Origin: Planctomycetota bacterium
Lineage (GTDB): Bacteria; Planctomycetota; UBA11346
Length of the DNA: 38,286 bases
Reading direction: 5' to 3'
NCBI GenBank assembly: GCA_038213805.1
Contig: JBBQSO010000050.1
Location: forward strand, 1 to 38,286
Numbering within the stretch: the stretch's first letter is position 1; each line of letters starts with the position of its first letter. The notes under the pieces were generated by a model that ran no database searches, was not told where the DNA came from, and saw only the letters and a list, made by a program, of their open reading frames with translations. Of this stretch, positions 145-31,402 are shown in pieces. A program made the position numbers and the translations under genes.

Positions 145-179
145 AAAAAATTTGGCGACCGGGAAATCCCGGTCGCCAA
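145..179 (-). terminator. Rho-independent terminator
   Basis: 12-bp stem TTGGCGACCGGG (152-163) / CCCGGTCGCCAA (168-179), followed on the minus strand by T6 (A6 at 145-150). Confidence 0.85.
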
Positions 180-388
180 GTGCAGGTGGAAGCGGGGAAC
201 ATCAGTGCCGATCAGGCGTTCGATGTCCCGGCATTCTCTCGACGTCACATCCGGCCGACAATCCACGGTATGACAGGTTGTCGCCTCCTTGTTTCACAAA
301 GCCGCGCGGCTGATCTCCACTCCAAACGCCTGCTGTCCGATGCGGGACGATGCAGGTGCAGGTCGGGTGGCCGTCTTCTTACCTCCAC
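145..388 (-). ncRNA. Candidate structured small RNA (~240 nt), family unknown
   Basis: Bounded by a sigma70-type promoter and a terminator. The 5' GUGGAGG can pair with 3' CUUCCAC. Several internal hairpins; no convincing ORF. Confidence 0.55.
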
Positions 389-394
389 GGTTGC

Positions 395-423
395 ATTATA
401 TGCCTCGGGGGCGACCCCGCCAA
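395..423 (-). promoter_or_regulatory. Sigma70-type promoter TTGGCG-N17-TATAAT
   Basis: Minus strand reads ttggcg gggtcgcccccgaggca tataat: a perfect -10 box with 17-bp spacing in a GC-rich genome. Confidence 0.75.
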
Positions 424-7099: not shown

Positions 7100-7549
7100 G
7101 TGGCGAAGGTGACGGTGAACACCCTGTTGAAGGGCGCGCTGGAGGTCGACGAGCACCAGCTCATCACCTTCGCCGTGCCGTTGCTGGGGTTCGAGCACCT
7201 CAAGCGCTTCCTCATCTACCAGACCAAGCCCGGCGCGCTGTACTGGATGCAGGCGGTCGAGGACGCCAAGGTCGGCTTCTGCCTGCTCGCGCCCTTCGAG
7301 GCCGGCCTTGACCCCGATCTCGAGATCGCCGGCGAGGACGTCGCGGACATCGGCGCGGCAAGCGCGGCCGACATCGAGGTCTACACCGTGGTGGTGCTCG
7401 ATCCCGTGCCTAGCGAGCGTCGCACCAATCTGCGCGCGCCGATCCTGATCGGGCGCGCCAGCCGCATCGCCAAGCAGGTGGTGCTCGCCGACCACCGGCT
7501 GCCGATCAAGTTCTTCCTGCGCGACCTGAAGCCGCTGGAGAAGACCTGA
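7100..7549 (+). CDS. fliW: Flagellar assembly factor FliW (CsrA antagonist)
   Basis: ITFAVPLLGFEHLKRF, YWMQAVED and TNLRAPILI motifs. GTG at 7100 follows an AAGGAG SD; alternative ATGs at 7073 and 7082. Confidence 0.93.
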   Translation: MAKVTVNTLLKGALEVDEHQLITFAVPLLGFEHLKRFLIYQTKPGALYWMQAVEDAKVGFCLLAPFEAGLDPDLEIAGEDVADIGAASAADIEVYTVVVLDPVPSERRTNLRAPILIGRASRIAKQVVLADHRLPIKFFLRDLKPLEKT

Positions 7550-7550
7550 C

Positions 7551-7790
7551 GTGCTTGTCCTGACCCGGCGCATCAATGAACGCATCGTGATAAACGGCGA
7601 GCTCGTGATCACGGTGCTCGACGTCGGGCGCAACGGCCAGGTCCGCCTCGGCTTCGACGGCCCGCGCCACTTCCAGATCTACCGCCACGAGCTGTTGCTC
7701 GAGATCCAGGCCGAGAACCGCCAGGCGCTGTCCAGCGCCGCGGAGGTCCCGTCCGATCTCGTCGCTCCGCCTCCGGCAAAGGAGGGTTGA
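7551..7790 (+). CDS. csrA: Carbon storage regulator CsrA
   Basis: MLVLTRR...GQVRLGFDGPR...IYRHEL plus the C-terminal helix EIQAENRQA typical of FliW-linked CsrA. Confidence 0.95.
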   Translation: MLVLTRRINERIVINGELVITVLDVGRNGQVRLGFDGPRHFQIYRHELLLEIQAENRQALSSAAEVPSDLVAPPPAKEG

Positions 7791-16834: not shown

Positions 16835-18730
16835 ATGGCCGAGGATCCCCCTTCGCAGGACGACATCGACGCCATCATCGCCCAGGTCGCGGGCGGTGCC
16901 GCGCCGACGCCCCCGGCGCCCTCCGGGCCGCTGGGCCAGAGCGACATCGACGCCCTGCTCAATGAGGTCCAATCCGCGGTCGCCGGCGCCCCGCCCGTCC
17001 GGGCCATCCCCGCCGCTGCGCCGGTCCCCGCCGACTTCACGGCACCCGCCGTCTTGAGCCAGGGCGACATCGACGCGCTCATCGACGAGGCCAAGGGCAC
17101 GCCACCCGCCGCCGCGGTTCCTGCTCCCGCCACGGCTCCAGCCAGCTCGACGACCACCGCCCGCGCCGCCCAGGACGACATCGACGCGATCCTCAACGAG
17201 GTGCAGTCGGTGATGGGCGGGGCGCCCCCGGCCAGCCCCTCGAAGGCCAAGCCCGCGCTCGGCGCCACCATGCCGGCGGCCGACTCCACCGCGGGCATGG
17301 CGCAGACCGACATCGACCAGCTGCTCGCCGAACTCGGCGCCGGCGCGCCCAGCCCCCGCCCGTCGACCGCGACCGCGACGGTGGCGATGAGCGATCCGCT
17401 CGCCGCGACCGTGATCGCGCCCTCGCAGGGGACCACCATCGAGGCGCCGCTCAACATCCCGGGCGGCGCGCAGCCGACCCTGGCACTGAGCAGCGAGGAC
17501 CTCGACGCGCTGATGGACAAGCAGTCGGCGACCGCCAGCGACCACAGCGAAGCGCCGATGATCGATCAGGGCGACATCGACGCCCTGGTCAAGCAGCTCG
17601 CCAACGCCACCGGCGCGCCCGACACCCAGCGCATCTCCGCCGCGCTCGCCCAGCACGAGGGCGAGATCGGCAAGCTGCTCGACAACGGCAACCCCAACGC
17701 CACCACCGCGGACGCGGTCGACATCGGCAAGCTCACGCAGCGCATGTCGCCGGGCGCCTCCGGCATGGTGATGTCGCACTTCGGCCCGGGCGTGCCGGTG
17801 CTCGCCCCGCGCGAGCTCAAGGGCGCACGTTGGCTGCTCGCCGCCGGCGTGCTGCTGCTCGGCGTGTGTTCGACCACCCTGATCGGGGTGGTGCGGGCGA
17901 TCGACAAGCTGGCGCAGGAGCTGCACAGCAACCGTCCCCTCGAGGTGGCGCCGACCGACAGCTATGCCGACGATCTCAAGACCGCGCTCGCCATGCTCGC
18001 CTCCACCGACGAGGTCGAGGCGGCCAAGGGCGTGGTCTTCGTCGGCCGGCTCAAGCAGCGTCAGCCGGTGCACGAGGCCGAACTCGCGCTGATCCTGGCG
18101 CGCCACCACCGCGCCCACGGCCAGCACCGCAACGCGGCCCAGGAGTTCGCGGTGGTGCTCGACGGCGCGGGCACGCTCGACGATCCGCGCGTCCACCTCG
18201 AGTTCGCCGACAGCCTCAGCCAGCTCAAGGATTACGCCGGGGCGACCCGCCAGGTCTACATCGTGCTCGCCAACGAGGCTGCCTACGTCGCTGAGCAGGA
18301 TCGCCATGGTCTGGCGCGGCCCGCCGACGAACTGGCGCGCAACCGCCAGGCAGTGCAGGACGCCTATCTCGACCTCGGCCGCCTGATGACCTCGTCCTGG
18401 GAACAGAGCCGCGACACGCGCCTGGCCAAGCGTGAGCCGCGCGAGGAACACGGCAACGAGGCCGGGCACGCAGGGCACGCCGCGCCGGCCGGTGAGGGCG
18501 GTCACGCCACCGCCGCGCCGCACGAGGCCCAGGACGCTGCTGCGCATGGCGCCGCCGCCGGCCCGCGCGAGGAAGCCCCCGCCCACGCCGCATCTGCCGG
18601 CGCGGCTGAGGAGCATGCGCCTGGCGGCGGCGCGGCGGGTGCCGCACCGCCGCTCGCGCACGACGCCGCCCAGCCCGCACCGCAGGCCACCGGCCACGCG
18701 GCACCCGCCGCGACGCACGAGGGCCACTAG
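16835..18730 (+). CDS. Bitopic membrane protein with seven FliM-N/CheZ-C-like peptides, TPR-like domain and His/Ala-rich tail
   Basis: Repeats SQDDIDAII, GQSDIDALL, SQGDIDALI, AQDDIDAIL, AQTDIDQLL, SSEDLDALM and DQGDIDALV; TM WLLAAGVLLLGVCSTTLIGVV. Confidence 0.85.
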   Translation: MAEDPPSQDDIDAIIAQVAGGAAPTPPAPSGPLGQSDIDALLNEVQSAVAGAPPVRAIPAAAPVPADFTAPAVLSQGDIDALIDEAKGTPPAAAVPAPATAPASSTTTARAAQDDIDAILNEVQSVMGGAPPASPSKAKPALGATMPAADSTAGMAQTDIDQLLAELGAGAPSPRPSTATATVAMSDPLAATVIAPSQGTTIEAPLNIPGGAQPTLALSSEDLDALMDKQSATASDHSEAPMIDQGDIDALVKQLANATGAPDTQRISAALAQHEGEIGKLLDNGNPNATTADAVDIGKLTQRMSPGASGMVMSHFGPGVPVLAPRELKGARWLLAAGVLLLGVCSTTLIGVVRAIDKLAQELHSNRPLEVAPTDSYADDLKTALAMLASTDEVEAAKGVVFVGRLKQRQPVHEAELALILARHHRAHGQHRNAAQEFAVVLDGAGTLDDPRVHLEFADSLSQLKDYAGATRQVYIVLANEAAYVAEQDRHGLARPADELARNRQAVQDAYLDLGRLMTSSWEQSRDTRLAKREPREEHGNEAGHAGHAAPAGEGGHATAAPHEAQDAAAHGAAAGPREEAPAHAASAGAAEEHAPGGGAAGAAPPLAHDAAQPAPQATGHAAPAATHEGH

Positions 18731-31327: not shown

Positions 31328-31402
31328 TCCCTGGTAGCTCAGCGGTAGAGCAGTTGACTGTTAATCAATTGGTCGGAGGTCCGAATCCTCCCCGGGGAGC
31401 CA
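31328..31402 (+). tRNA. tRNA-Asn(GTT) with encoded CCA
   Basis: Acceptor TCCCTGG/CCGGGGA, D arm GCTC/GAGC, anticodon arm GTTGA-CTGTTAA-TCAAT, T arm GGAGG/CCTCC (loop TCCGAAT). Confidence 0.95.

Follow-up and report, generated by a model that had tools for sequence, protein, structure and literature searches.

We describe here a structured RNA encoded on the minus strand, between positions 423 and 145, of a 38,286-nucleotide (nt) stretch of Planctomycetota DNA (assembly GCA_038213805.1, contig JBBQSO010000050.1, positions 1 to 38,286) that was analysed at its full length and is referred to below as the window. The locus is very probably a real structured non-coding RNA (ncRNA) gene that founds a new, so far uncatalogued family, a degree of confidence that extends to the gene and to the family and not to the mechanism by which the RNA acts. 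With equal confidence, we regard the ncRNA of ~240 nt, made up of a 209-nt folded core followed by an intrinsic terminator, as the product of its own independent gene. A sequence-only reading of the window had proposed exactly such a self-contained, non-coding and structured transcription unit without a match to known families, and the proposal is upheld by comparison with Rfam, by the promoters and terminators that are conserved among homologues and by covariation within the fold. The window is made up of the first 38,286 bases of contig C50 of a genome bin, G000, that comprises 5.5 Mb in 180 contigs, is 90.3% complete and has a G+C content of 69%.

An independent gene with a conserved promoter and terminator

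BLAST recovered two close copies of the RNA, in genomes G010 (98%) and G003 (85-86%). Strongly diverged RNAs with the same layout lie in G002 and G007 behind the same gene for a 305-amino-acid (aa) protein that precedes the RNA in the window, and a motif scan of metagenome contigs contributed one additional lineage. A covariance model built from three diverged sequences only, without the terminator (R1; 203 positions, 56 pairs), aligns the close copies end to end (45.3 bits for G003 and 36.1 bits for G010), aligns the window's copy at full length over 179-388 (32.1 bits, E-value 4e-7) and yielded additional copies in G005, G008 and G004.

Promoter- and terminator-like sites were sought with a consensus scan of positions 1-1600, with the expectation taken from shuffles. 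The scan returned a single sigma-70-like site (0.1 expected in shuffles), which matches the consensus at 10 of 12 positions and is the minus-strand TTGGCG-N17-TATAAT promoter that the sequence-only reading had pointed out: a -35-like hexamer TTGGCG at 418-423 and, after a 17-nt spacer, a -10 hexamer TATAAT at 395-400. The -35-like hexamer is identical in G010 and G003; the corresponding position is occupied by CTGGAG, at equal distance, in five of the six diverged homologues and by TGGTGA in G004. The -10 box is present in all nine homologues, 11-14 nt before the first paired base, as TATAAT in seven cases and as TAAAAT in two.

Equally, a single terminator-like site was found in the same interval (0.7 expected in shuffles), and it has the 12-base-pair (bp) stem and T6 tract that had been predicted. 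The stem-loop, with nine G-C pairs and a four-nucleotide AUUU loop, occupies 152-179, and one A separates it from the T6 tract at 145-150. In all nine homologues a terminator hairpin of -23.9 to -29.5 kcal/mol directly follows the last paired base of the fold, and in eight of the nine it is succeeded by a T/U run of at least six. The stem sequences themselves vary between lineages, and three compensatory pairs distinguish G003 from G000. Judging from the promoter, the terminator and the points where conservation begins and ends, transcription probably runs from ~388 to ~145: between G000 and G003, the conserved stretch opens with the -35 box and does not extend past the T tract. The folded core, as placed by end-to-end alignment to the covariance model of diverged homologues, spans 180-388 (209 nt), with 388 as the putative 5' end.

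A multi-helix fold kept by compensatory changes

The 244-nt RNA from 388 to 145 folds at -105.5 kcal/mol, as compared with -86.3 +/- 5.0 kcal/mol for 200 dinucleotide shuffles (z = -3.8), none of which folds as well. To score individual pairs, nine sequences were aligned to R1 and evaluated at its 56 modelled pairs. Standard pairs occupy 88.1% of the cells, as opposed to 33-46% once the 3' partners have been slid along by 1-3 columns; both sides are changed in 28 of the 56 pairs, as opposed to 4-8 in the slid controls; and the covariation score is 0.391, as opposed to 0.065-0.098 in the slid controls, with no score as high in 500 shuffles. A multi-helix fold of eight to nine helices is kept by compensatory changes among the homologues. 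Since the first alignment was fitted to structure and represents only about six lineages, a structure-blind MAFFT alignment of five diverged sequences was folded as well; the result has an identical architecture, in which 8 of the 52 pairs are compensated.

The fold is closed by helix 1, in which GUG.AGGU at the 5' end (381-388) pairs with ACCU.CAC (180-187) directly before the terminator. Five of its seven pairs are changed on both sides across the nine sequences and 91.9% of cells pair. The sequence-only reading had correctly paired the 5' end with the segment just before the terminator, but in the register GUGGAGG/CUUCCAC; covariation backs GUG.AGGU/ACCU.CAC instead, the 3' strand of which lies ~5 bases further 3' than CUUCCAC. 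In the diverged homologues helix 1 reads GUC.GGU/ACC.GAC, and GUGGAGG/CUUCCAC cannot form there. Helix 2 joins 361-375, which holds an invariant CCACC, to 241-256 through 14 pairs, five of them changed on both sides (83.3% of cells pair). At the 3' side, a long irregular hairpin composed of helices 8 and 9 (188-237) is defined by covariation: 7 of the 13 pairs of helix 8 are changed on both sides (89.7% paired), as are two of the five pairs of helix 9 (94.9% paired).

Other parts of the fold are more variable. Helices 3 and 4 form a hairpin at 329-356 (CCUGC/GCAGG and GUCC/GGAC) that is found in both the minimum-energy and the consensus folds; a hairpin of other sequence stands at this position in the diverged homologues. 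This hairpin had been predicted from the letters alone, as had GGGACAUCG..UGAUGUUCC, and both are present in the minimum-energy fold and fit the family fold. Two further predictions held in part. CUUUGU-GAA-ACAAGG is in the minimum-energy fold, but the family fold keeps only a 2-bp counterpart of it, helix 6; CGACAA..UUGUCG appears in the consensus fold that the three closest copies share, but the model aligns the window poorly there. The helix 7 region (256-283) is likewise variable: the consensus fold of the close copies has a hairpin CGACAACC ... GGAUUGUCG, the diverged homologues use another register and the window forms one of four standard pairs in the model. A proposed alternative helix of 10 bp, which had suggested a possible switch, is not supported: imposing it raises the energy by 11.2 kcal/mol above that of the minimum-energy fold, two of its 10 pairs are broken without compensation in G003, and no counterpart was found by eye in the six diverged homologues.

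Several observations weigh against taking the family fold, and the covariation behind it, at face value. The alignment from which the pair counts were drawn was fitted to the structure of the model; its nine sequences correspond to about six lineages, so that the compensatory changes are not independent events; and all sources are metagenome bins or contigs. In the window's own copy, helix 2 has 9 of 14 standard pairs. Forcing this helix costs nothing in G003, where it is part of the minimum-energy fold, but in G000 the family fold with helix 2 lies 6.5 kcal/mol above the predicted minimum, which pairs CCACCCGA locally with UUGG.GUGG. This locally pairing segment is exclusive to the window's own subgroup. 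The three closest sequences may therefore fold partly differently from the rest of the family, or switch between folds.

In a related environmental contig (run X3), 4 of the 244 positions of the RNA body are changed, as compared with 22 differences in the last 194 nt of the 305-aa gene, and the stretch between the RNA and that gene has diverged beyond alignment. In run X5, the hairpin at 329-356 has four of the seven listed differences in its loops, internal and apical (positions 343, 344, 350 and 351), and none in its stems. As judged from these variants, the RNA is evidently under purifying selection.

The locus is not protein-coding

A small protein gene might be suspected from a leaderless 47-codon frame that runs from a GTG at 388 to a TGA at 245; as the sequence-only reading had noted, it exists, and it is the sole closed sense frame. 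The frame begins at the predicted 5' end and is closed in G000, G010 and G003. Its content is not conserved, however: between G003 and G000 a +1 and a -1 indel preserve the length but change 28 of the 47 residues, and the 25 substitutions that separate the two are distributed 10/8/7 over the codon positions, with no excess at the third. No three-base periodicity was detected in seven pairwise comparisons (p 0.33-0.98), and most of the insertions and deletions that separate homologues have a length not divisible by three. A counterpart of the frame is missing from the six diverged homologues, whose longest frames vary as to where they start, how long they are and whether they are closed; the Shine-Dalgarno-like AAGGAG of the RNA lies 17 nt from the nearest GTG in G000. 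No codon-like conservation, which would have spoken for a protein gene, was thus seen. The ~240-nt stretch is not protein-coding, and a gene for a small protein, in this or in another short frame, is extremely unlikely as an explanation of the locus.

No counterpart among catalogued RNA families

That the RNA has no match to a known family, as the sequence-only reading had stated, is confirmed at this locus by a covariance-model scan with Rfam 15. Across the whole window the only match at gathering thresholds is a tRNA at 31328-31399. When positions 100-600 were searched at E-values up to 10, three sub-threshold matches appeared (16.6, 12.3 and 11.7 bits, with thresholds of 40, 36 and 54), which lie on the terminator or on a neighbouring heptamer repeat only. 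Six homologous loci, searched at E-values up to 1, gave 21 matches, none of them on the RNA. The common housekeeping RNAs are encoded elsewhere in G000: RNase P RNA on C8 (219.7 bits), transfer-messenger RNA on C127 (187.6 bits) and signal recognition particle RNA on C81 (37.9 bits, just below the Rfam cut-off of 40). A full-text search of the published literature returned no description of such an RNA, and almost no regulatory RNAs described for Planctomycetota. The only motif linked to Planctomycetes that we met, Rhodopirellula-1, is a row in a table of PMC2864571; it is known here by that row alone, which offers neither an Rfam accession nor a sequence for comparison.

6S RNA deserves separate consideration, as the RNA could be a functional analogue that binds RNA polymerase. 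It is of a similar size class, its 5' and 3' ends pair and its promoter is probably strong, and the Rfam model of 6S RNA (RF00013) finds nothing in the window or, at E-values up to 1, anywhere in G000. In the literature, the phylum has no recognised 6S RNA: PMC5673643 describes Thermogutta as having no 6S homologue and, with reference to Wehner et al. 2014, Pirellula and Rhodopirellula as lacking 6S RNA. The silence of the search means little, though, because it was positive in just 5 of 14 control genomes. Moreover, the fold is branched (four branch points in R1, nine helices), unlike the rod with a central bubble of 6S RNA, and the family was found in a single genus only; branching and narrow range together make a 6S-like role highly unlikely.

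Rather, the RNA is a new family of a known kind, the orphan structured small RNAs (sRNAs) of bacteria. Comparative genomics has revealed a number of orphan bacterial ncRNAs with complex folds, among them the raiA motif RNA (~200 nt), OLE, ROOL and GOLLD. Like these, the RNA described here is a stand-alone gene product of ~200 nt with several helices arranged around junctions, and it shares with them covarying helices, invariant bases in junctions or linkers and the lack of an assigned function. It differs from them in having no Rfam match, in belonging to a different phylum and in its much narrower range of one genus. Its two most distinctive elements, an invariant tract resembling a Shine-Dalgarno (SD) sequence and a hairpin formed by a GC palindrome, are to our knowledge not features of raiA, OLE, ROOL or GOLLD.

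The family is known from one genus

The distribution of the RNA was assessed with a second covariance model, R2, which was built from nine sequences and covers the 3' two-thirds of the RNA; on the window it scores 125.1 bits over 179-312. Searches of this kind lose weak matches: the genome search with R1 failed on the known copies in G000 and G010, and a failure to find the RNA elsewhere is therefore weak evidence of absence. R2 detected a single copy, at 92-135 bits, in 8 of the 48 genomes of the family, and all eight belong to the window's genus, in which 8 of 11 genomes (G000 included) carry the RNA. The three genus members without an R2 match are 62%, 70% and 89% complete. R2 found no copy in the 37 genomes from 17 other genera of the family. 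In a phylum-wide sample of 151 genomes, R2 matches were confined to G000 and G004, with none in the 143 Planctomycetota genomes from outside the family (22 candidates scored per genome), and plasmid and phage collections contained no match to the RNA. So far, the RNA family has been seen only in a single genus within an uncultured class of Planctomycetota, with one copy per genome.

Searches at the level of family, order and class cover the identical 48 species-level genomes, this being the sole family of its class in the collection, and the host thus represents a class-level lineage known only from metagenome bins. None of the 48 genomes is assembled into fewer than ~40 contigs.

A number of candidate copies were set aside. 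Additional BLAST-level matches in G022, G058 and G041 are only 20-31 nt long and lie within protein-coding DNA, as expected by chance. Weak R1 matches (17-21 bits) in G022, G010:C75, G049 and L040 align only in part, and R2 has no match in those genomes; at two of these loci, L063 and L064, R2 gives at most 14.9 bits. The sole pattern match on a viral contig falls within a coding region and scores 11.9 bits. The pattern scan of metagenome contigs produced seven loci, three of which represent one true homologue and three chance, the remaining one being L045. This locus, a partial copy with an unrelated 5' half, was kept out of the final counts. Its contig of 1426 nt fuses two-thirds of a homologue, from the 3' side (107.3 bits with R2), to unrelated, coding-like DNA and terminates in a long perfect fold-back; it probably arose as a chimera during assembly.

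Two invariant elements

Two sequence elements stand out by being unchanged in all nine sequences. The first is helix 5 (300-311), a palindrome GCCGCGCGGC that folds into a 4-bp stem with a GCGC loop and whose 10-mer is identical in 9/9 sequences. The pair flanking the palindrome covaries (U-A in four sequences, A-U in three, C-G in one and U-G in one), and the U-G variant argues for pairing in the RNA rather than for a palindrome that acts as DNA. A self-duplex formed through the palindrome is predicted to be 18 kcal/mol better than two hairpins. The invariant palindrome could let the RNA dimerise, or it could equally be a protein site.

The second element, at 276-290, is the tract AAGGAG (290-285) - N3 - ACAACC (281-276), which is present in 9/9 homologues with a spacing of 3-5 nt between its halves. 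It amounts to a canonical SD sequence followed by a CA-rich stretch, without a shared start codon, and AAGGAG(G) is the complement of CCUCCUU, the end of the 16S rRNA in this lineage. The predicted probability of being unpaired is 0.36-0.61 for AAGGAG and, in six of the nine sequences, 0.66-0.93 for ACAACC, as compared with a mean of 0.37-0.40. Pairing of AAGGAG...CAACC at two sites with the 16S 3' tail was considered and rejected: the lineage reads GCGGCUGGAUCACCUCCUUUCU, and the anti-SD part alone pairs.

A tentative mechanism: a mimic of the ribosome-binding site

We tentatively suggest, as the most likely mechanism but one that falls well short of being probable, that the RNA is a trans-acting scaffold or decoy which displays a mimic of the ribosome-binding site and titrates a partner that reads SD sequences. 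The fold would act as a rigid scaffold on which the invariant and largely unpaired SD-like and CA-rich tract AAGGAG-N3-5-ACAACC is displayed; the RNA would in this way imitate a region of translation initiation and titrate away a factor that recognises sequences of this type, with the anti-SD end of the 30S subunit or an SD-binding repressor as candidate partners. The suggestion stems from the invariance of AAGGAG and ACAACC in 9/9 homologues, from their location in the least-paired part of the molecule and from the complementarity of AAGGAG(G) to the 16S rRNA end. The amount of conserved structure also fits better with RNAs that bind a protein or a ligand than with simple antisense RNAs.

Other observations tell against a decoy of this kind. 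AAGGAG is only moderately unpaired, and half of it is buried in the CUUUGU/ACAAGG hairpin in the minimum fold of G000. The ACAACC half has no pairing to the 16S 3' end, which reads GGCUGG in the lineage. A family confined to one genus would be odd for a regulator of a core process. We know of no described parallel for an RNA decoy that mimics an SD sequence. A more elaborate version, in which an RNA that self-pairs through its 10-12-nt GC palindrome and carries a ribosome-binding-site mimic devoid of a start codon is a dedicated decoy of the 30S anti-SD or of an SD repressor, perhaps filling the global-regulator niche of 6S RNA, is a long shot.

The same invariant tract could instead be the seed of an antisense regulator, in which single-stranded AAGGAG/ACAACC would pair with pyrimidine-rich sites in mRNAs and the remainder of the molecule would contribute only stability. 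The RNA has features that seed sRNAs generally show, being a stand-alone gene with a terminator and U tail and having a weakly paired invariant tract. Seed sRNAs of the RsaE/RoxS type use C-rich loops to pair with SD sequences, and the present RNA resembles them in that a stable structure, closed off by an intrinsic terminator, carries a short invariant tract. The polarity is opposite, however: its own tract is the SD-like partner (AAGGAG) and would pair with CCUCC-type sequences, as at the 16S 3' end, and not with the SD of an mRNA. It also has far more conserved structure: eight to nine helices covary over ~200 nt, well beyond what an sRNA composed of a seed and a terminator would require. 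When its own genome was scanned for GGTTGT-N2-7-CTCCTT, there were five matches, one of which is the opposite strand of the gene itself and none of which has a telling context, and no Hfq gene (PF17209) was found in the 90.3%-complete G000 genome. Regulation by antisense pairing is therefore rather unlikely, in our estimation, though it deserves to be taken seriously.

The sequence-only reading had also raised, as speculation, a role as a sponge that titrates CsrA in the manner of CsrB or RsmZ. The observations on which this was built are correct. The gene for CsrA lies ~7 kb away (7554-7709, plus strand; 61 bits), and the RNA has eight GGA motifs before the terminator, of which one, contained in the invariant AAGGAG, is a canonical A(N)GGA. 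In its stand-alone gene with promoter and terminator, its GGA motifs and the presence of csrA in the genome, the RNA resembles CsrB, RsmY and RsmZ. The sponge role itself is nevertheless not supported. The eight GGA of the G000 copy compare with 5.2 +/- 1.5 in 500 dinucleotide shuffles (p = 0.054) and the single A(N)GGA with an expectation of 1.0; the six diverged homologues have 4-6 GGA as compared with 3.5-4.9 expected; and GGA is enriched over dinucleotide shuffles in none of the nine homologues. Only the GGA inside AAGGAG is invariant, the consensus fold lacks the array of hairpins with GGA loops that marks CsrB/RsmY/RsmZ, and there is no Rfam match to a CsrB or Rsm family. Furthermore, csrA directly follows fliW (7163-7513, plus strand; 89.5 bits), and this pair contains the sole CsrA and the sole FliW match in the G000 genome. 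A fliW-csrA pairing is typical of the CsrA type that is antagonised by the protein FliW, in a flagellar arrangement known from Bacillus. The RNA also resides in other gene neighbourhoods in G005, G008 and G004. Taken together, a CsrA sponge is very improbable.

Elsewhere in the genome (G000:C69), ~60 nt before the flagellin gene at 18081, the leader of this gene, one of three for flagellin, holds several GGA, and one of these overlaps the SD sequence, as expected of a flagellin mRNA under CsrA control. The diverged homologues resemble one G000 flagellin leader over 9 nt (ACCCACGGA), which is within chance, and the window's RNA does not share this stretch.

The locus adds to Planctomycetota a well-delimited RNA family that combines a covarying fold of eight to nine helices with two invariant elements of an unusual kind and with what is probably a strong promoter. 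The host class is uncultured and accounts for 48 species-level genomes of the collection that was searched. Should the SD-mimic idea be true, the RNA would be a new kind of translational decoy; otherwise, it joins the existing orphan structured RNAs, with a general importance limited by a range of one genus. As long as the hosts have not been cultured, the tests that are easily reachable are limited to in vitro and metatranscriptomic ones.

Genomic neighbourhood

The most frequent upstream neighbour of the RNA, at 569-1486 on the minus strand of the window, encodes the 305-aa protein, which is all-helical and belongs to no Pfam family. The protein is present in 33 of the 48 family genomes and falls into 54 database clusters, one of which has a TPR_12 match and one of which bears the name TPR repeat protein in its source. 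In G000, G010, G003, G002, G007 and two metagenome contigs the RNA lies ~145-470 nt behind this gene, and in G007 and the metagenome contigs it is followed by a co-directional frame. These arrangements would suit a cis-acting element, be it a riboswitch or leader of the following gene or a processed 3' end of the 305-aa gene's mRNA. Three observations speak against it: the RNA's own -10 box is kept in every homologue; the downstream gene is convergent in five lineages (in G003 and G010 a gene for an RbsD/FucU protein, in G002, G008 and G004 other genes), and in the two co-directional lineages it starts ~270 nt or more past the terminator; and in G005, G008 and G004 the RNA is found away from the 305-aa gene, next to other genes. 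The downstream gene is not readable in G000 and G005, where the contigs end. Conversely, in six other genomes no such RNA is found behind the 305-aa gene. The varying neighbours indicate that the RNA travels as its own unit, and a cis-acting role can be regarded as highly improbable.

Past the terminator, the window consists of a perfect tandem repeat of the 7-nt unit CCATCAG (positions 1-136; 19.4 copies, 100% matches), which begins 8 nt beyond the T tract of the RNA and reaches the first base of the contig. As the repeat runs to the contig start, it probably broke the assembly. At the corresponding site there are ~5 degenerate copies in G003 and none in G010 or in two environmental variants.

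Repeats of another sort flank the RNA in other genomes. In G002 and G008, near-perfect inverted repeats of ~100 nt lie just past the terminator (L017:978-1085 and L060:1771-1916) and draw spurious matches to microRNA families from Rfam, and a similar inverted repeat is located behind the 305-aa gene in G005 (L021). These inverted repeats may be miniature mobile or REP-like elements that reshuffle the neighbourhood of the RNA.

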